Origin: a virus | Virus record (IMG/VR): IMGVR_UViG_3300045988_077901 | Location: 1 to 32,345 of that record | DNA length: 32,345 nt | Strand: one strand, 5' to 3' | In this document: positions 1-32,345 of the stretch, piece after piece | Layout of the letters: every line of letters begins with the position of its first letter | Position numbering within the stretch: position 1 is the first letter of the stretch | The notes under the pieces: model-generated | Told to the model about the DNA's origin: nothing | The model's input: the letters and a program-made list of their open reading frames with translations, nothing else | Databases searched by the model: none | Program-made: the position numbers and the translations under genes

Positions 1-99
1 CATTTGACTACTACGGTAATGACTTCACACCGCCCAAATATAGACACGAACTATTCTCTAATGAGAATAGTTCGTGTAATTCTCCTATGGTGGAGCCTA
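1..99. repeat. Terminal direct repeat, identical to 32247..32345 (end overlap of a circular 32,246-bp genome)
   Basis: Read directly: catttgactactacggtaatgac...ctatggtggagccta is present at both window ends with a constant offset of 32246. Confidence 0.95.
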
Positions 100-200
100 A
101 GCGAAAGACTGCGAACGCGCATAAAATCACCCTCAAAAGTTGTTATGTGCAGGTTAGCCGCAATTGGTTTGTAATTGTCAGCAACTTAAAGAACACCTGA
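1..200 (+). CDS. Large serine recombinase, last ~65 codons plus TGA stop (continuation of 30890..32345 across the circular junction)
   Basis: Frame of the 30890 ORF maps onto codon starts 99,102..; translation ...EPKRKTANAHKITLKSCYVQVSRNWFVIVSNLKNT then TGA at 198-200; no earlier in-frame stop. Confidence 0.8.
   Translation, partial: FDYYGNDFTPPKYRHELFSNENSSCNSPMVEPKRKTANAHKITLKSCYVQVSRNWFVIVSNLKNT
44..77. repeat. Perfect inverted repeat ACACGAACTATTCTC-TAAT-GAGAATAGTTCGTGT (same bases also at 32290..32323); candidate serine-recombinase attP core
   Basis: 15-bp arms are exact reverse complements, 4-bp spacer; lies inside the 3' end of the recombinase ORF in a locally AT-richer stretch. Confidence 0.9.
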
Positions 201-233
201 TGGGCGGCTCAATATAAGCCCGTATAAGACACG

Positions 234-268
234 AAAACGGGGCACCCCTTGTTAGGGTGCCCCGTTTT
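234..268. terminator. Bidirectional rho-independent terminator between recombinase (+) and endolysin (-)
   Basis: AAAACGGGGCACCC-cttgtta-GGGTGCCCCGTTTT: 14-bp stem (10-bp GC core) with A4 and T4 at its outer ends, between two convergent stop codons (198-200 and 272-274). Confidence 0.75.
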
Positions 269-271
269 AAG

Positions 272-1318
272 CTAGATTTTCAAGACTTGCCCCGGATAAA
301 TAACATTCGGGTTTGCAATGCCGTTTTTCGCCGCTAACGTCTGGTAGGTGGTGCCGTATTTCGCGGCAATTCCTGAAAGCGTGTCACCTGATTTCACGGT
401 GTAGGTTTGGCCGTTGGAAACGTTGCCGTTAACAATCGCCATAACTTCATTGTAGCGGCTCGCAAGAATCGCTTTGCGTTCTGAACCGTTGCGGTACTTG
501 CCCGCCCATGTTTCCTTCGCCAACTCTTCAGCAGACGCGCCGGCAATATGATTCACCATCTGTTGTACTTCGGTGAAGCGCGAACCAAGCGCCGTAGCGC
601 GTGCAGAACCGTTGCCGTAATCGCCATTAAACACACCGGCTACAAGGTCTAGCAAGTCCATGTTTTCAACGCCGGTTGCCGGTTCGGTCGGTTGCGGTGC
701 CGGCTGAACGTTTCCGCCAGCAGCGGCCATGCGCTGCCATCCGCTCGCATCCATATAGGCTTTGTTCAAGTCTAGGTTTCCGCCCCAACCGTCAAGCCGG
801 CCAGCGCTCGAATACTGGCGAACGTCGCACGTATAGGCACCTTCATTCCATGGGTTGGCCTGAATCCCCGTTTGGTTCATGTTCGCGTATTGTGCAACCC
901 ATGTTGGGCAACCGTGCTTCTTTGCAATATCCCATGGAAACACGCTTTGGCTTGAATAGATCATTGGCGCAACGCCGGTGATCTCTTTTACCTTAGCGGT
1001 AAGGGCATCGAGATAGCCGACGTTGCCCCAAGCGCTGTTCTGCTCGCTTTCCCAGTCAAGCGCAATAATGCCCTTGCCCAAGTAACCTTTGATGCTATCG
1101 GCGAAATGCCTAGCTTCAGCATCAACGCCAGCGCCGTTAATGTAATGGTAAACGCCGAAGCAAAGGCCGCGTTTAATGGCCTGTTGCACTTGCCTGTCAC
1201 AATCGGGCGAAACATAGCTTGCGCCCTGCGTCGCCTTGCAAATCACAAAATCAATTGGCAGAACATCAAGATTGATGCCCTTTTGCCAATTGCTAACGTC
1301 AATTCCTTGCATTGCCAT
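272..1318 (-). CDS. Endolysin: GH25 muramidase + two CW_7 (Cpl-7-type) repeats + C-terminal LysM
   Basis: [23 protein letters not shown] (GH25); [25 protein letters not shown] and [25 protein letters not shown] (CW_7-like); [30 protein letters not shown] (LysM); GGGAGGT RBS before ATG 1318. Confidence 0.9.
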
Positions 1319-3115: not shown

Positions 3116-4312
3116 TCATCCGAAAAGCTGCGAAAACAGCGCGTCCATAGCCCTAACGGTTCTCCTTGCGTCAAGCTTCAGCATCGAACCGCGCCAAGAT
3201 TGATAGCTTTGCAACGCCTGTTCCCTCGTCATTTCGCCGCGCTCCACGAATGCGGCAAGCTTCTTCAGCTTGCGGCGCTGGCGCGTTACGGCGGAACGGC
3301 AAGGCCGCACAATAACTTTTCCTGTCTCTCCATAGTTGAACCTCTTCTTTAGATAGGTGAACCCGCGCGAAAGCTTAACGATGCGGGTTTTCTTGTCGTT
3401 AATGACTATGCCCAACTTTTCGCATTCCGCCCGAATGTCCGATAGCACGCCGTGAAGGTCTGCTTTGTCAAGGGCAATGCAATAAAGGTCATCCATGTAA
3501 CGCCCGCTGTGAAGAACGCACGGCGTGCGCAACAAAAGGTGGTCTATAGGGCTTGGCAACGCTACTGCTAATATCTGGTTCGGCTCGCTGCCAAGCCCAA
3601 GGCCACGGGTGCCGTGGGAATCAATTTGCGCATACACAAGTTCTTTGATTCGGTCATCGATGATTGACCTGTCAACAAGGCGCTTGCAAGCGTCATGGTC
3701 AATGTTGCCGAAGTAGCTTGAAAAGTCCACCAGCAGCACGTAACCTTCGCTGCCGTGCTTCTGGTAGTGCTTTGCAAGCTGCTGCTTGAGCCTGTCAACC
3801 GCGTAAGATGTGCCGCGCCCCTTAATGTTTGCCGTGCAACCGGCGGTAAGGGTCGGCCAGATCGCGGGCGCAAGCGCATATCGGTTCAATGCCTTGTGTA
3901 TAACGCGCTCCGAATAGTGTACGGACGTTATGTGCCGAAGCTTCCCGCGCTCGCGAATATCGAACTCAACGAAACCGCGCCTTATGTCCTTTCCCGAAAG
4001 CAAATCTTCACGGGCTTTGCAGACGTTGGGCAAGCAACGCGCCAAATAGCGTTGAACTGCCGATTTCCAACCCACGCCATGGGCGCAAGCCTGTGCGCAT
4101 CTGTAAAGGTTGTCAACGTCTGCAACCTGTTCAATGGTGCATCGTTCAAGGCGCTTTTCTCGGTTCGCCGCGCGTTTCGCATCGCGGCGGGCACGTCGTG
4201 CAGCCCGCCGCTCTTCGGATTTCACGGGCACCCCGCACGGCTTGCAATCGGCATTCCGTAGCCGCTTAGGCACCAACAATGAAACGCAAGCAAATGCCGA
4301 AACCTGCGCCAT
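3116..4312 (-). CDS. DGR reverse transcriptase
   Basis: RT motifs LLVDFSSYFGNIDH, GLGLGSEPNQILAVALPSPIDH, GRYMDDLYCIA, NDKKTRIV; immediately downstream of TR and avd. Confidence 0.9.
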   Translation of the reverse strand: MAQVSAFACVSLLVPKRLRNADCKPCGVPVKSEERRAARRARRDAKRAANREKRLERCTIEQVADVDNLYRCAQACAHGVGWKSAVQRYLARCLPNVCKAREDLLSGKDIRRGFVEFDIRERGKLRHITSVHYSERVIHKALNRYALAPAIWPTLTAGCTANIKGRGTSYAVDRLKQQLAKHYQKHGSEGYVLLVDFSSYFGNIDHDACKRLVDRSIIDDRIKELVYAQIDSHGTRGLGLGSEPNQILAVALPSPIDHLLLRTPCVLHSGRYMDDLYCIALDKADLHGVLSDIRAECEKLGIVINDKKTRIVKLSRGFTYLKKRFNYGETGKVIVRPCRSAVTRQRRKLKKLAAFVERGEMTREQALQSYQSWRGSMLKLDARRTVRAMDALFSQLFG

Positions 4313-4430
4313 GCAAGCAGCGGTCTGCGGTACCCACGGGGTGCATATTTACGGCCATATGGCCGAACGTCGCACCTTCCTTCCTCTTCTGCACGGATTG
4401 CGGACGCATCCGCAATGGCTGGCATTTTCA

Positions 4431-4560
4431 AGGAATCACGGGCGCGGGCGCACCCACTCATTAGTGGCCGAATTGTTGTTGCAGTTGCCGTTGCTGTTGA
4501 CATTGCACACGTTGGACGCGGAACCGCCCATGACGGAACGCAACCACCAATTGACGCGCT
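4431..4560 (-). repeat. DGR template repeat (TR)
   Basis: 130 bp aligning base for base with 5071..5200 (offset 640); 116/130 identical; rich in AAY codons when read in the target frame. Confidence 0.9.
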
Positions 4561-4585
4561 AAACAAGATGCGACGTATGGTTATT

Positions 4586-4993
4586 CTACCCTTGCCCAAT
4601 CAATTTCACACCCTTTCTTGCGCCCTTGATTAGCTTTATCGCCGTTTCAACATCTTCTGCCATCCGCTCGCACCTGCTCACCTTCACAATGCCAAGTTCG
4701 ATAAGGCATTGCAGGTCTTGCATGATCTGCTCGCAGTCCGCAACGGCAAGCGTCATGTAATGCCGCCGCTGGCAAACGTTGTGTTCGGTGTTGGGGTAGA
4801 ACGCGTTTGCGGTCACAAGGTTGTGAACGATGCTTCGCGCTGTTTCCGCCATCGGGACGGCAAACACGAATCGGTATGACTTCGGCAACGCCGAAGAAGT
4901 AACAAGCGCCGTGATCTCTTTTCTGATTCTAACGGCGGTTGTGAAATACTCGTAATTGCTCAAATCGCGATAGCGGGCTAGAACTGTACTCAA
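4586..4993 (-). CDS. avd: Accessory variability determinant (Avd-like, four-helix-bundle type)
   Basis: 135-aa helical basic protein between target and TR, the canonical Avd position; TTG start with GAAAGG RBS. Confidence 0.7.
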   Translation of the reverse strand: MSTVLARYRDLSNYEYFTTAVRIRKEITALVTSSALPKSYRFVFAVPMAETARSIVHNLVTANAFYPNTEHNVCQRRHYMTLAVADCEQIMQDLQCLIELGIVKVSRCERMAEDVETAIKLIKGARKGVKLIGQG

Positions 4994-5014
4994 AGCAAGC
5001 CTTTCTTGTATCTA

Positions 5015-5035
5015 GCGCCCGCGCAAGGCGGGCGC
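5015..5035 (-). promoter_or_regulatory. GC-rich hairpin downstream of VR (candidate DGR target-recognition hairpin/cruciform)
   Basis: GCGCCCGC-gcaag-GCGGGCGC, 8-bp all-GC stem; 26 nt past the target stop codon, 36 nt past the VR end. Confidence 0.5.
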
Positions 5036-5060
5036 GGTTAAAGCGCACGGCATCGGCTTA

Positions 5061-5969
5061 TCAGTCTATTAGGAAGCACGGGCGCGGGCGCACCCAGTCA
5101 TTAGCGGCCGAATGGTTGCTGCAGTGGCCGTAGCTGCGGACAATGCACACGTGGGACGCGGAACCGCCCACGACGGAACGCAACCACCAAAAGACGCGCT
5201 CGCCCATCAAGCGGCTTGCCGCGCTGTCGAATATGGGGAAGTGGCAATCCATACCAACAGAATAACCCTTGCTGCCCCAAACAGCGCACCCGTAAACTTC
5301 CATTTCGGACAAAGACCAGACCTTGCCTAGGTCTGCCCATCCCCAGCCGCTAGCTTCAGTAAGCCCACCTGAAGAACCGTAGCGCTGTTCTGCCAACGAA
5401 CGGTGGTTCATAAGAACGTTGCGCAATGCCGCTGGCAAAGCCGGCAAATAATCGCTTATCTCCCAGCCGTGAAGCTTGCTGATTAGGTAGGGTTCTTTCG
5501 TGGTCGCGTTGCCGTTGTTGGTCGCTGTGTCGTTCCACTTGATATAGCTACCGTTTGAAGCCTTAGACCCGCCGACAAGGACGGGTGCCGATGGGACGAA
5601 CGCGATATGGTGCCCCATTGGCGAATCTGAACACTGGTAATAGGGATCAATTGCGCCGATCATGTAACGCACGGTCTGCGCCGGAACGTTCGTGCCGGCT
5701 GTGATTGGAACGTCCATGTAATCGCCGATGCGCAAGCCGGTGAAGTCTCCATCCTGCGCCCGCGATTTCAACCAGGCGTAAATATCGCCGCCAGCAGCGG
5801 CAATCTCCGAAGCGAAAGTGGTTGCAAGCGAACGCCCCTTGAATTGCGCAATGCCCTTTTGGCGGTCGAACTCTTCCTGAACGGTTACGGCGCTGGCAGA
5901 ATCACGCGCCGTTGTGTCTGCGTTCATGTATGTAGTGCCATTTACGTTGAAGCCCTTTAAGTCTGACAT
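5061..5969 (-). CDS. DGR target protein: tail-module receptor-binding candidate with C-type-lectin-like variable C-terminus
   Basis: C-terminus ..VWSLSEMEVYG..FPIF..RVFWWLRSVVGGSASHVCIVRSYGHCSNHSAANDWVRPRPCFLID holds the VR; AGGGGG RBS before ATG 5969 (the track start 5987 is less likely). Confidence 0.85.
   Translation of the reverse strand: MSDLKGFNVNGTTYMNADTTARDSASAVTVQEEFDRQKGIAQFKGRSLATTFASEIAAAGGDIYAWLKSRAQDGDFTGLRIGDYMDVPITAGTNVPAQTVRYMIGAIDPYYQCSDSPMGHHIAFVPSAPVLVGGSKASNGSYIKWNDTATNNGNATTKEPYLISKLHGWEISDYLPALPAALRNVLMNHRSLAEQRYGSSGGLTEASGWGWADLGKVWSLSEMEVYGCAVWGSKGYSVGMDCHFPIFDSAASRLMGERVFWWLRSVVGGSASHVCIVRSYGHCSNHSAANDWVRPRPCFLID
5071..5200 (-). repeat. DGR variable repeat (VR)
   Basis: Differs from TR at 14 positions, 13 of which are A in the TR coding strand; ends 8 nt before the target stop codon. 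Confidence 0.9.
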
Positions 5970-5979
5970 TTTCAGCCCC

Positions 5980-7071
5980 CTAAACAAGTGTGATTATGTT
6001 GTCTGCGAAGGTCGCGCCTGGAATGGAAAGCACGCCGTTTTCTACGGTTGCGCCACGGCTTGCCGGAACGTAGCAAATGCCGTCAATGATTATGTAATCG
6101 TCCGTGGCATCGCAAAGCGCACGCGCAAGCGTCGCATTGTCCCTTTTCAATTGGTCAATATCGGCGCTGCTGGCACCGCCGCCTGAACCGCCGCCGCCAG
6201 AACCAATGACGTTCAAGGCACGCTTCGTTGCGTCCCTCGCATCTTCGGCGGCGCTGTGCGCGTCAGCCGCCGCAATGTCGGCGTTCGCCTTTGCCGTGTT
6301 GGCCGCGCTTGCGGCATCGTTCGCCGCCGTTGCCGCGCTATTGGCGCTCTCAATCGCGGTTTCTACGCGCTCCGCCGCCGCGTTCGCCGCCGTTGCCGCG
6401 CTATTGGCGCTGGCCGCTGCGCTGTTCGCCGAAGATGCGGCGCTTGTTGCGCTGCTTGCAGCGCTGTTGGCAGAAGATGCGGCGCTTGTGGCAGACTGTG
6501 CCGCCGCATTCGCTGCGCTCGCGGCGCTGTTGGCCGCCGTTGTGGCCGCTTCGGCGTTCGTCACGGCTGTTTCGACGCGTGCCACCCCCGCATTCGCTGC
6601 ACTTGCGGCGCTGTTTGCGCTTGCCGCTGCGCTGTTGGCCGAACTTACGGCGGCGTTTCCGCGCTTGATTAAGTTGTCTATTGCGTCATCCCAGCTTTGC
6701 GCCGGTTGCTGTCCGGCTGTGGCGCATTTCAGAATCTCGATTGCGAAGCGCTCCGTTGAGTAGCGCACGCCGTTTTTCTCGAACGCGAAATAGGCTTCGT
6801 CCGTGTAGCCCGGAATGCTGCAAAGCTTGCTTTCGTCAACGGTGACGGTTGCGGCGTTGCCTGAAATGGTGGCCGCTGCGCGGTAGTAGTTCGCCTTGTT
6901 TGGCAACAGCACTTCAAGGTATCCCGTGAAGTCAGTTAGCGCCGCTTCCGCGCCGCCGTCGTAGATAAGCGCCTTGATGGTGGTTCCGTGCTTGTCGCCC
7001 TGACCGACGCGGACAAGGCCAGCGCCCAAGCCGTCCTTGCTAAGGTCTAGTTCAAGCGTGTGCGTGTTCAT
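5980..7071 (-). CDS. Tail fibre / baseplate upper protein (BppU-like N-terminus, Ala/Ser heptad stalk, Gly linker, C-terminal head)
   Basis: N-terminus MNTHTLELDLSKD..VRVGQGDKHGTTIKALIYDGG (BppU_N-like); ~140 aa of SAASSAN-type heptads; GSGGGGSGGG linker. Confidence 0.65.
   Translation of the reverse strand: MNTHTLELDLSKDGLGAGLVRVGQGDKHGTTIKALIYDGGAEAALTDFTGYLEVLLPNKANYYRAAATISGNAATVTVDESKLCSIPGYTDEAYFAFEKNGVRYSTERFAIEILKCATAGQQPAQSWDDAIDNLIKRGNAAVSSANSAAASANSAASAANAGVARVETAVTNAEAATTAANSAASAANAAAQSATSAASSANSAASSATSAASSANSAAASANSAATAANAAAERVETAIESANSAATAANDAASAANTAKANADIAAADAHSAAEDARDATKRALNVIGSGGGGSGGGASSADIDQLKRDNATLARALCDATDDYIIIDGICYVPASRGATVENGVLSIPGATFADNIITLV
6230..6660. repeat. 21-nt periodic GC-rich coding repeats (heptad stalk), including a perfect 31-bp direct repeat at 6318..6348 and 6381..6411
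   Basis: cgttcgccgccgttgccgcgctattggcgct occurs twice 63 bp apart; the surrounding sequence is variations of gccgc(n)ttggc units. Confidence 0.7.
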
Positions 7072-23417: not shown

Positions 23418-24617
23418 TCATTGCAACAACTCCTTCAACTCAACGTGCGCCGCTTCAGCCGCTTGCTCAAAGACGATTGCAGCGCGTTTCCCGCTTCCCG
23501 GCATTCGGTGCGCGTATGTCTTGACGGTGATTGCTTCGTCGGCGTGCCCTAAGCGATTGGAAACGGTCTTAACGTCTACGCCGTTGACCAGAAGCCATGT
23601 TGCGTGCGTGTGCCGCAATCCGTGGTAGGTAAGCCCTTTCGGCATACCCGCTTTTGCCGCAATGCCGGAAAACGCACGCGATATGGTGGACGGTCTGCAA
23701 TAGCTGCCGTCTATCGTGATTAGCGGTGCATCTGCTGGCAGATCGCCGCAAAACCTCTTTCGCAGTTCCAAGAAATCGGCGATAACCTGCAAATCAGATT
23801 CGGCAATCTCAATCGTTCGATTGCGACGGCCTTTTGTGACGTTGCGCCTGTATGGCCTTTTGCCCTTTTGCTCAATTACCGTGCCGGCAATGTGTATCGT
23901 CTTTGCTGCTTCCGAAATCTCGTTAGGCCACAACGCGCACACCTCGCCGCACCTCATGCCTGTTCTAAGCGCGAACCAAGCGGCAAACGCGTTCAAAACG
24001 CGCCTATACGTAACCTTGTTCAAAACCTCTGGTTTAAGAATCGCTTTTAGCTGCTCGTCCAGCTTTGCGAAATCCACGGTTGCAAGTGAAATTGCTTCGT
24101 GTGTCTCCAAGCGCGGCTTGTTAACTGCAATGAGCGGGTTAATCTGGCAAATGTTTTCTTCCACGAACCACGAATAGGCACCGCGCAAGAAATCGTGTAC
24201 GTTGCGCACGGTGTTTTGCGATAGTTCAAAGCCCTTTTTGCTCTTCGGTCGGCGCAAGGCAATTTCAAACTTCGTGAAGTTGTGCGTTTGAAGGTCGCAC
24301 GCGTTGACGGCTCCGAAGTACCTAACGGCATACTTCGTGAACAGCCGATAGCTTCTAACGGTGTTTGGCGAAAAGCCCGCCAGTTCGCAATACTCTGTGT
24401 AATCGTCCAGCAGATCGCCAAGCAACGCGCTAAGCACCAGCCCATTAGCCGACAGCTTGGAAGCCCACGCGTCGGCCATTTCCTGCGCTTGCTCTTCGTC
24501 TTGCGCCGTTGGAAACTCGCGGTAGGGCTGAATCGCCTTGCCTTCAGCCGTGCGCCCAAGATACGGGCGGGCAAACCACACTTCACGCTTAGTGTCCCAT
24601 TTCACCTTGCAGCGCAT
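23418..24617 (-). CDS. Tyrosine recombinase / phage integrase family
   Basis: ALRTGMRCGE, HGLRHTHATWLL, LGHADEAITVKTYAH catalytic signature; ATG 24617 follows the upstream stop with a GAGG RBS. Confidence 0.9.
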   Translation of the reverse strand: MRCKVKWDTKREVWFARPYLGRTAEGKAIQPYREFPTAQDEEQAQEMADAWASKLSANGLVLSALLGDLLDDYTEYCELAGFSPNTVRSYRLFTKYAVRYFGAVNACDLQTHNFTKFEIALRRPKSKKGFELSQNTVRNVHDFLRGAYSWFVEENICQINPLIAVNKPRLETHEAISLATVDFAKLDEQLKAILKPEVLNKVTYRRVLNAFAAWFALRTGMRCGEVCALWPNEISEAAKTIHIAGTVIEQKGKRPYRRNVTKGRRNRTIEIAESDLQVIADFLELRKRFCGDLPADAPLITIDGSYCRPSTISRAFSGIAAKAGMPKGLTYHGLRHTHATWLLVNGVDVKTVSNRLGHADEAITVKTYAHRMPGSGKRAAIVFEQAAEAAHVELKELLQ

Positions 24618-24619
24618 GG

Positions 24620-24955
24620 CTATTCGACCTCGGTTTGCTCTACGTTGCCTAACGGGCATTCGTTGCGCATCACGAAGCCAAGATGCTTGCTTGCTTCTGT
24701 TCTTTTAGGAAATTGGCAGCAATCTTCAAAACTGTTCCAATAGGCGCACTGGTCATCTACTGTTTCGGTGCCGCTGCATTGCTCTAACTCTTCCGGAAGA
24801 ATGCGCCAAAAAAACGGCACAATGCAATACCCGACAAGAAACACCCGACCGCACTTGAAGCACTCTACTTCATATTCAATGCCTGGTTCTTGCTCGCAGT
24901 ATTCGGAACCATCAAAAGCAGCGCCGCAATATGGGCACGTATATTCAGCATTCAT
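24620..24955 (-). CDS. Zinc-ribbon hypothetical protein
   Basis: CPYC..(26 aa)..CFKC; GGAGGG RBS. Confidence 0.5.
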   Translation of the reverse strand: MNAEYTCPYCGAAFDGSEYCEQEPGIEYEVECFKCGRVFLVGYCIVPFFWRILPEELEQCSGTETVDDQCAYWNSFEDCCQFPKRTEASKHLGFVMRNECPLGNVEQTEVE

Positions 24956-30889: not shown

Positions 30890-32345
30890 ATGGAAAAGAA
30901 ACGCGCCGCTATATACGCCCGCTTTTCGTCGCACAATCAACGTTCCGAATCGATAGAAATCCAAGTTGAGAACTCAACGCGCTATTGCCAAGAAAACGGC
31001 CTTGACGTTGTGCGCATCTATACAGACTACGCAAAGACCGGGCGCAACACTGACCGCGCCGAATTTCAACGGATGATGGACGATGCCCGCTTGGGTCTGT
31101 TTGATTTCGTCGTGATCTACAAGGTAACGCGCATTATGCGCAATCGCGACGAAATGGCGCTTGCACGCATCATGCTTCGCAAGTCAGGCGTTGAAATACT
31201 CTATGCCGGTGAGGAAATCGCCAGCGGTTCAAGCGGCGTGCTGCAACTTGGAATGCTCGAAGTGCTGGCGGAATGGGAAAGCGCCATAGACAGCGAGCGA
31301 ATCAGGGATGGAATACAGAAGAACGCCCAACGCTGCATGGCCAATGGCCGCACGCTTTACGGTTGGGACATAGTGGAAGGACGCTACCGCGTCAATGATC
31401 GTGAAGCCGCTTGGCTGAGAAAAATGAAGAACAAGTTGTTTAGCGGCGCAACCATGGCCGAAGTGGTGCGAAGCGTGGACGCAATGCGCACCCGCCAAGG
31501 AAAGAAGGTTAACCAAGACACCGCAACAAAGCTGCTGTTGCGTCCCCAGAACGGCGGCACTTATTGCTATGCCGGCGTTGTTGTTGAAGGTGGGATGCCG
31601 GCGCTTTGGCCGAAGCACGAACAAGACATGATAATTTCAATGCTGAAAAGCCGCCACAAGCCGCATAGGCGCGTTGATACCGCCGAAGAATGGCCGTTGT
31701 CCGGCAAGCTATGGTGCGCTTGCTGTGACAGCACCTTAACCGGCACAAGCGGCACAAGCGCCACTGGCAAGACCTATGCTTATTACAAGTGCAACAAGTG
31801 CGGGCGCACCTTCAGGCGCGACGTTTTGGAAGATGCCATAGTGGACGTTGTTTGCGAAGCTGTGAAGCGCCCCGAAATACGGGGCAATATAGCCGCCCTT
31901 ATGGCTGATTGGTCTAAGGATAATGCGGAAGAAACACCGCTAGAAAGTGAGCGCATCAAAGGTGAGATTAGGCGCATTGATGCGGCATTTGAAAACATCT
32001 GGCAAGCCATCGAATCGGGCATAGCGCCGCCGGGTGGCAAAGATCGCGTTCAGGAATTGACCGAACGCAAAAACGAACTTGAAGCCGAATACCACATGGC
32101 TAAAGCGCATGAAAGCTTAGAACCAGACTATGAAGAAATAAGGCAATGGCTTGACGAAATAGCGCAGAATCTAATGCCGCAAGAAATATTGAAAATGTTC
32201 ATTCGAGCGGCTGAAATTGAAGGTGACGTTGTGAAGCTATTCTTTGCATTTGACTACTACGGTAATGACTTCACACCGCCCAAATATAGACACGAACTAT
32301 TCTCTAATGAGAATAGTTCGTGTAATTCTCCTATGGTGGAGCCTA
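30890..32345 (+). CDS. Large serine recombinase (integrase); runs off the window end and finishes at 198-200 (518 aa in total)
   Basis: My own translation, not in the ORF track: MEKKRAAIYARFSSHNQ (catalytic Ser motif), resolvase-like core, recombinase domain, zinc ribbon CACCDS..YYKCNKCG, then coiled coil; no stop in 485 codons. Confidence 0.9.
   Translation, partial: MEKKRAAIYARFSSHNQRSESIEIQVENSTRYCQENGLDVVRIYTDYAKTGRNTDRAEFQRMMDDARLGLFDFVVIYKVTRIMRNRDEMALARIMLRKSGVEILYAGEEIASGSSGVLQLGMLEVLAEWESAIDSERIRDGIQKNAQRCMANGRTLYGWDIVEGRYRVNDREAAWLRKMKNKLFSGATMAEVVRSVDAMRTRQGKKVNQDTATKLLLRPQNGGTYCYAGVVVEGGMPALWPKHEQDMIISMLKSRHKPHRRVDTAEEWPLSGKLWCACCDSTLTGTSGTSATGKTYAYYKCNKCGRTFRRDVLEDAIVDVVCEAVKRPEIRGNIAALMADWSKDNAEETPLESERIKGEIRRIDAAFENIWQAIESGIAPPGGKDRVQELTERKNELEAEYHMAKAHESLEPDYEEIRQWLDEIAQNLMPQEILKMFIRAAEIEGDVVKLFFAFDYYGNDFTPPKYRHELFSNENSSCNSPMVEP
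32247..32345. repeat. Terminal direct repeat, identical to 1..99
   Basis: See the 1..99 feature. Confidence 0.95.

Follow-up and report, generated by a model that had tools for sequence, protein, structure and literature searches.

A perfect palindrome inside the 3′ end of a phage integrase gene raises the question of whether it is a recombination site, an RNA structure or a binding site for a regulator. This question is posed by the virus record IMGVR_UViG_3300045988_077901, which represents a temperate phage of gut Coriobacteriia in its excised, circular state and which was analysed over its whole length of 32,345 nucleotides (the window). The genome comprises 32,246 bp, as window positions 1–99 are identical to 32247–32345 (an exact 99-bp terminal overlap), and because this overlap stems from the assembly of a circle, the palindrome appears twice in the window, at 44–77 and at 32290–32323. 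The recombinase ORF of 518 amino acids accordingly wraps around the window (30890–32246, then 1–200): it continues at window positions 100–200, since 32247–32345 repeats 1–99. Resolvase (PF00239) and zinc-ribbon (PF13408) domains identify the int product as a large serine recombinase. The initial annotation had described a perfect 15-bp inverted repeat in a locally AT-richer stretch, about 120 nt before the recombinase stop, and had proposed it as the core of attP with a crossover at its central AA (60/61), or alternatively as a stable mRNA hairpin or a site for a dimeric regulator. The description itself is accurate. The arms are 100% complementary and enclose a 4-nt TAAT spacer, the G+C content is 35% in the palindrome versus 56% in the genome, and 121 nt lie between the end of the palindrome and the stop codon. 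When the entire genome was scanned for perfect hairpins (arms of at least 10 nt, loops of at most 10 nt), just two were returned, at 44–77 and 234–268, and only the former has 15-bp arms; by chance, perfect 15-nt arms with such loops are expected about 3e-4 times (32,246 × 11 / 4^15). The stem has 40% G+C and is perfect on either strand in the window, and the minus strand of 28–95 folds with −27.8 kcal/mol (z = −6.19), with none of 200 shuffles being as stable. A site of the telomere-resolvase type was considered and rejected, given the circular assembly of the genome and a TAAT centre that lacks self-complementarity. The features of the locus are listed in Table 1.

Table 1. Positions in the window of the features discussed in the text.
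Feature	Position	Strand	Remarks
Large serine recombinase gene (int), 5′ part	30890..32345	+	Resolvase 5.3e-27, Zn_ribbon_recom 2e-08
Large serine recombinase gene (int), 3′ end	1..200	+	codons 453–518, stop at 198–200
U-rich tail after stem	34..43	−	CTATATTTGG in the window, 5/10 T, passes the scan rule
Hairpin	44..77	−	intrinsic-terminator-type stem-loop, antisense to int codons 467–478 (RHELFSNENSSC)
Arms of the palindrome	44–58 and 63–77		ACACGAACTATTCTC and GAGAATAGTTCGTGT; loop 59–62
Inferred attP	~66..120		centre ~93; based on conservation and dyad symmetry
GTTCG	70..74		invariant motif; also in the right arm of the palindrome
Spacer between hairpin and core	78..87		10 nt, length constant in all relatives; inner attP left half-site (ctAATt.Tcc.a)
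Int tail, excised form only	96..197	+	codons 485–518; three predicted beta strands
CGAAC	112..116		invariant mirror motif, attP right half-site
Strong G+C-rich hairpin terminator	234..268		14-bp arms; between the convergent int and endolysin genes
Endolysin gene	272..1318	−	GH25 + CW_7 + LysM; last gene at the other prophage end
Reverse transcriptase ORF (RVT_1)	3116–4312	−	part of a diversity-generating retroelement
Template repeat (TR)	4431–4560		130-nt repeat pair with VR, 89% identity
Variable repeat (VR)	5071–5200		in ORF 5061–5987 (−)

The position of the crossover follows from prophage junctions and from empty target sites. Contig L001 encodes an Int with 99% identity, and its Int-side junction reads ...GTGTAATTCTCCTA / TGGTGGAG / GCGCGGAGAATCGAAC (host part GCGCGGAGAATCGAACTCCGG), and ARAGORN assigns a tmRNA gene on the opposite strand that ends exactly at this junction, with smpB nearby. 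The endolysin gene served as bait for contigs that hold the far prophage junction, and the endolysin-side junction of L007 and L009 reads host GCGGCCGC-CCCGAAGA-GCGGCCGC-GAAAAGCT / TGGTGGAG / CCTAAGCG, that is, host ...GCGGCCGCCCCGAAGAGCGGCCGCGAAAAGCT TGGTGGAG CCTAAGCGAAAG, running on as window position 96 onward. The empty attB reconstructed from both junctions was found in 19 human-gut metagenome contigs, and in L174, L177 and L179 it showed 120/120 identity on both flanks, with the tmRNA 3′ end lying exactly on the core. Both junctions together with the empty sites thus establish TGGTGGAG at 88–95 as the common core, which is present in attP, in attB and in both prophage junctions, and which reads CTCCACCA on the opposite strand, as the 3′ terminus of tmRNA/tRNA-Ala; these are the final 8 bp of the tmRNA gene of the host. 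Variant cores confine the exchange further to 89–94, namely those of relatives with GGGTGGAG and of tRNA-Lys relatives that have only TGGTGGA. The element restores its target gene: attB extends over the RNA gene's 3′ end, and the identical segment (CTCCACCA) is carried by the phage. The junctions therefore lie elsewhere than in the palindrome, which is whole inside the prophage, and in the copies examined, the postulated exchange at 60/61 is thereby ruled out. The true junction is just 11 bp away from the right end of the palindrome, and the crossover occurs about 30 bp to the right of the palindrome, inside int.

In the broader sense that the serine recombinase gene holds attP in its 3′ end, the annotation was correct, as the core 88–95 lies within the int ORF. 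In a comparison of 27 unique free forms, dyad symmetry is greatest about window position 93.0 (match fraction 0.494, versus at most 0.40 for other axes), and the attP consensus of these 27 distinct sequences is GTTCG.ctAATt.Tcc.a TGGTGGAG C.Ta.ga.AAa.a..GCGAAC. The CGAAC motif is found at +17..+21 after the core in all free forms; its counterpart in integrated copies, contributed by the T-loop of the targeted RNA gene, always lies at +12..+16, 5 bp nearer. In large serine integrases, the outer motif is about 5 bp nearer to the centre in attB-type than in attP-type half-sites (PMC11722253). The 5-bp offset and the symmetric consensus therefore make GTTCG at 70–74 the most likely candidate for the outer motif recognised in the left half-site of attP, presumably by DBD2/zinc-ribbon. 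The right arm of the palindrome thus probably forms part of the outer region of this half-site. No clear motif was seen in the other attB half-site, on the side of the host terminator. In conclusion, the region of about 66–120 has what is expected in silico of an attP: the junctions lie inside it, an empty attB exists, the cognate recombinase is encoded and the site is quasi-dyad symmetric; the palindrome 44–77 does not qualify, as the junctions are not at its centre.

The hosts of this integrase family are Coriobacteriia (Collinsella, Olsenella, Eggerthellaceae, Gordonibacter and others). Among 141 loci, the target was the tmRNA gene in 26, tRNA-Ala(CGC) in 20, tRNA-Ala(GGC) in 16 and tRNA-Ala(TGC) in 3, and a further 33 loci were free forms. 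The recognised feature would be the near-universal T-loop/acceptor end of tmRNA and tRNA-Ala, which would explain how close relatives hop between genes. Two Eggerthella MAG loci (L147 and L148) contain insertions at the 3′ end of tRNA-Lys(CTT) with the core TGGTGGA only, and the family is thus not strictly limited to tRNA-Ala-like acceptor ends. The IMG/VR loci L080–L086 carry GGGTGGAG in place of TGGTGGAG, and with this core the tRNA-Ala gene of a lysogen would end CTCCACCC, without an encoded CCA.

If the palindrome is not the crossover site, its conservation must be explained otherwise, and relatives of the phage are informative in this respect. The hairpin is at the same place in all lineages, with differing sequences. 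In an alignment of 30 distinct minus-strand sequences over the 15-pair helix, 97.8% of the helix cells are paired, and changes on both sides are seen in 10 of the 15 pairs; the covariation score is 0.463 versus 0.143 in shuffles, with none of 500 shuffles scoring as high, and in shifted-register controls at most 49% of the cells pair. The only invariant part of the stem is the CGAAC/GTTCG at its base; the other bases vary while pairing is kept. The hairpin is therefore maintained by compensatory changes, as is characteristic of the stable stem of an intrinsic terminator. The strand on which it acts is indicated by the wobble pairs, since there are 34 G·U cells on the minus strand and not a single A·C cell, which would be G·U if the plus strand were read. 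Of 49 sequences, 45 fold more stably as minus strand, the mean difference being 6 kcal/mol, and the 10 nt after the stem contain a mean of 7.0 T on the minus strand versus 3.7 on the plus strand in relatives; at the position of the window's U-rich tail, most of them carry TTTTTTTG or TTTTTCT. The minus-strand T's of this tail are Lys codons (AAA/AAG) in int. In a terminator scan, the hairpin is called for the minus strand (77→44) and not for the plus strand. The geometry varies among relatives, with loops of 4–17 nt and stems of about 11 to 15 bp. Wobble asymmetry, fold stability and the T-run together characterize the hairpin as an RNA structure that resembles an intrinsic terminator and is antisense to int. 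Of the alternatives offered initially, the stable mRNA hairpin thus comes closest, except that the structure forms on the strand complementary to the int mRNA.

What could such a structure terminate? In all relatives, core and hairpin are separated by exactly 10 nt, and in lysogens the hairpin is consequently found 10 nt past the CCA end of tmRNA or tRNA-Ala, on the strand of the RNA gene. At the empty tmRNA site, the native host terminator begins 8 nt after the CCA (GCGGCCGC-TCTTCGGG-GCGGCCGC-TTTTCTCT), and upon integration this terminator ends up 32 kb away, on the other side of the prophage. As expected of a terminator, the hairpin is at the end of a transcription unit in both states, after the RNA gene in lysogens and downstream of the late operon in the free form. 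Covariation, wobble asymmetry, T-run and fixed position lead us to read the palindrome as a minus-strand intrinsic terminator that is written antisense in a disordered linker of Int, directly abutting attP, and that would serve as a surrogate for the host terminator. To this reading we assign a probability of about 0.6. In the proposed mechanism, the serine recombinase would recombine attP (at about 93) with the final 8 bp of the tmRNA gene of the host, or of tRNA-Ala in relatives, by which the hairpin would come to occupy the site of the displaced host terminator. There, it most likely terminates or stabilises the tmRNA or tRNA-Ala transcript, and it would also keep strong transcription of the RNA gene from entering int and the prophage in antisense direction. 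Its coding in a variable, disordered linker would permit such an antisense element inside int, with the right arm doubling as the presumed outer motif of attP. Termination as well as protein contacts are deduced from the sequences, and we are much more confident about the position of the junction and the hairpin at RNA level than about the role as terminator. Counterpoints are the poor U tract in the lineage of the window (CUAUAUUUGG) and the G+C content of the stem, which reaches only 40%, and the constant spacing of 10 nt could be a by-product of GTTCG needing a fixed distance from the crossover. In the IMG/VR locus L035, a tRNA-Ile(GAT) gene lies immediately before the tRNA-Ala(TGC) target, so that the terminator brought in by the phage would close a unit of several tRNAs.

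The alternative that survives best also regards the hairpin as a terminator. The late genes are on the minus strand, and the late operon ends with the endolysin gene at 272, so that read-through would reach 77→44; the hairpin could thus mainly be a second terminator behind the late operon of the free phage that shields int from antisense read-through, with its position at the tRNA end being incidental. The clade L050–L055 fits this idea, as it lacks a strong hairpin in the stretch from the int stop to the following gene and as its int-embedded terminator (GGGGTTCGCC-TTTTTTTG) is the best of its kind; the scan of this stretch is of qualitative use only, since its rule (at least 5 T in 9 nt) called none and missed even the obvious terminator of the window. 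However, the window already has a strong terminator, called at 268→234 directly after the endolysin gene, and hairpin and core keep an exact distance of 10 nt in all lineages, which mimics the position of the displaced native terminator. We therefore consider it unlikely that this is the main function, and the two roles are not mutually exclusive. The hairpin at 234–268 is flanked by A and T runs and looks like a bidirectional terminator. An Rfam search of window 1–400 returned no family at the palindrome hairpin, and the sole match was below threshold and corresponded to the ordinary terminator (217–274).

A quite different alternative is a dyad that is bound by protein, either as an accessory site of the recombinase or as the operator of a dimeric regulator, the latter having been among the initial proposals. 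Its appeal lies in the invariance of CGAAC/GTTCG in both arms, a motif that also marks the right attP half-site and the T-loop of the target. But the distance between the motifs ranges from about 10 to about 40 nt in relatives, with the variable loops described above, which is incompatible with a dimer of fixed geometry, and such variation of loops and stems argues against a dimer that binds the duplex. Apart from the CGAAC/GTTCG core, the stem bases vary freely with pairing kept, and the G·U to A·C ratio of 34:0 indicates pairing of single-stranded RNA, not recognition of a duplex. Furthermore, the motifs are 9.5–13.5 bp away from the dyad centre of the palindrome, versus 14–18 bp in attB and 19–23 bp in attP. 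A protein-binding dyad is thus very improbable. Marginally less credit still can be given to a hairpin that acts in the int mRNA, for example by slowing ribosomes or by protecting the message: it lies within the int ORF and the window's stem is perfect on either strand, but the plus-strand version has C·A mismatches in relatives where the minus strand has G·U, the plus-strand fold is the weaker one by the 6 kcal/mol given above, and there is no plus-strand T-run. The palindrome as attP core with strand exchange at 60/61, for which dyad symmetry, the non-palindromic centre and the vicinity of int had spoken, has practically no chance, as the junctions at 88–95 leave it intact in the lysogen and the 541-aa prophage Int still encodes RHELFSNENSSCNSPMVE before it diverges.

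The location of attP has consequences for the integrase itself. Homologues of the recombinase fall into two classes. Those of the first class have about 515–525 amino acids, match the query from end to end and are mostly encoded on contigs of about 31–33 kb. Those of the second class vary in length (541, 502, 499, 572 amino acids, and others), are collinear up to ...SSCNSPMVE (E484, window 93–95) and then diverge into tails such as ARRIELRS... or PRGIEPLTS..., which are the translated reverse complement of a tRNA-like 3′ end. Free and integrated forms thus do encode different C-termini, as had been predicted, with 518 residues in the free form versus 541, 502, 499 or 572 residues in integrated ones. 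The predicted replacement of C-terminal codons also takes place; its extent had been estimated at about 45 codons, and it is actually the last 34 that are replaced. In the lineage of the window, these 34 codons are exchanged for 57 host-derived codons, which results in the protein of 541 amino acids that is 99% identical up to the junction, and the codons of the original tail end up at the opposite prophage end, detached from int.

The tail of the free form is conserved at protein level. Its pattern ..I/V-x-V-S-x-N-W-F-x-I/V-I/V.. is kept through synonymous changes, including Ser AGC↔TCG, and pN/pS is 0.45 in the int frame versus 1.18 and 1.57 in the other frames. In the AlphaFold2 model of Int (mean pLDDT 74.7), residues 466–491, which correspond to the codons of hairpin, spacer and core and whose sequence is highly variable among relatives, have a pLDDT below 50, and the tail strands 493–496, 500–504 and 509–513 are predicted with a pLDDT of about 70–76. 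The tail is thus under purifying selection and predicted to be folded, so that the excised form encodes a conserved, probably folded tail of 34 residues that is removed by integration. As a conserved tail of the free form is swapped upon integration, the initial idea of state-dependent C-termini was correct in substance. Whether the DNA state thereby sets two Int isoforms, with the tail as a switch of directionality or stability and a linker that also carries the antisense terminator by which the essential host RNA gene would remain functional, is a tentative proposal that we consider less probable than its opposite. If it holds, the tail might, for example, be a requirement of attP × attB synapsis, or of Int stability, that excision can do without, and this would be an integration-dependent switch in the large serine integrase class, for which no precedent was found in the literature searched. 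The Int ORFs of some relatives (loci L100, L108, L137 and L140; proteins P0042, P0053, P0058 and P0064) continue after MVE/MV into sequence other than tRNA or tmRNA, and this set includes fusions with domains of the Bac_transf, Band_7 and NlpC/P60 types; such continuations may represent secondary or off-target integration sites, or other target preferences.

Comparison with known systems shows which aspects are familiar. Like known Rho-independent terminators, among them phage-borne sequence that upon 3′-end integration takes over from what had followed a tRNA/tmRNA gene, the element consists of a stem-loop with a U-rich tract directly downstream of an RNA gene and on the same strand, with compensatory pairing and at the position of the displaced terminator. 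It differs in being antisense inside an integrase ORF, so that every stem base belongs to a codon of int as well, in the overlap of the minus-strand 5′ arm with the presumed outer motif of the recombinase, and in a U tract that is weak in this lineage; termination is a prediction. The enzyme conforms to the LI/A118, SPbeta, Bxb1 and phiC31 paradigm with respect to the Resolvase and zinc-ribbon domains, the quasi-dyad attP of about 50 bp and the 5-bp attB-type offset, but here attP lies in the ORF of the recombinase itself, the common core has 8 bp, and the target is the T-loop/acceptor end of tmRNA or tRNA-Ala instead of a protein-coding gene. BPs-type mycobacteriophages exhibit integration-dependent immunity, with attP in the repressor gene and a tyrosine integrase. 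Also in that case, attP is inside a gene whose product differs in its C-terminus between free and integrated state; there it is the repressor that is swapped, whereas here it is the tail of the recombinase, with a functional effect that is only proposed. A similar arrangement is that of Myxococcus phage Mx8, whose Int is a tyrosine recombinase and whose target is a tRNA gene. According to a review that cites Tojo 1996 and Magrini 1999, attP of Mx8 (IntP/IntX) is inside int, and integration generates a new int 3′ end (PMC6070905). The location of attP within the int ORF and the different C-termini of free phage and prophage are shared with our phage, which differs by its large serine recombinase with a short, simple attP and by a swapped 34-residue tail of predicted beta strands behind a disordered linker. 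Membership in the Mx8 family was rejected despite the alike arrangement, as the enzyme here is a serine recombinase. A literature search of incomplete coverage returned no serine integrase with attP in its own ORF, and none aimed at tmRNA/tRNA-Ala 3′ ends. Among GenBank phages, there was no close relative at DNA level, Int is at most 32% identical to phage integrases in GenBank (Faecalibacterium and Roseburia phages), and matches of Int in a PDB search were confined to the catalytic domain (e.g., TP901-1).

With these data, attP, attB and the crossover region are located for an uncharacterised family of large serine integrases that is common in human-gut Coriobacteriia (Collinsella, Olsenella, Eggerthellaceae) and that belongs to an enzyme class wanted for genome engineering. 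About 75 bp appear to be used in three ways, as codons of a disordered Int linker, as a putative antisense terminator for a host RNA gene, and as the left half plus core of attP. The conserved tail that is found only in the excised form makes a contribution to serine integrase directionality testable, by use of the 518-, 484- and 541-aa forms.

Two further features of the genome deserve mention. A second recombinase gene in the early region (23418–24659, minus strand) encodes a tyrosine recombinase of 413 amino acids (Phage_integrase, 1e-21), for which dimer resolution, an alternative route of integration or excision, or inversion are possibilities. Furthermore, a diversity-generating retroelement is present at window positions 3116–5987; 13 of the 14 mismatches between TR and VR are at adenines of the template copy, and VR is located at the 3′ end of a DUF6273 gene of the tail region.
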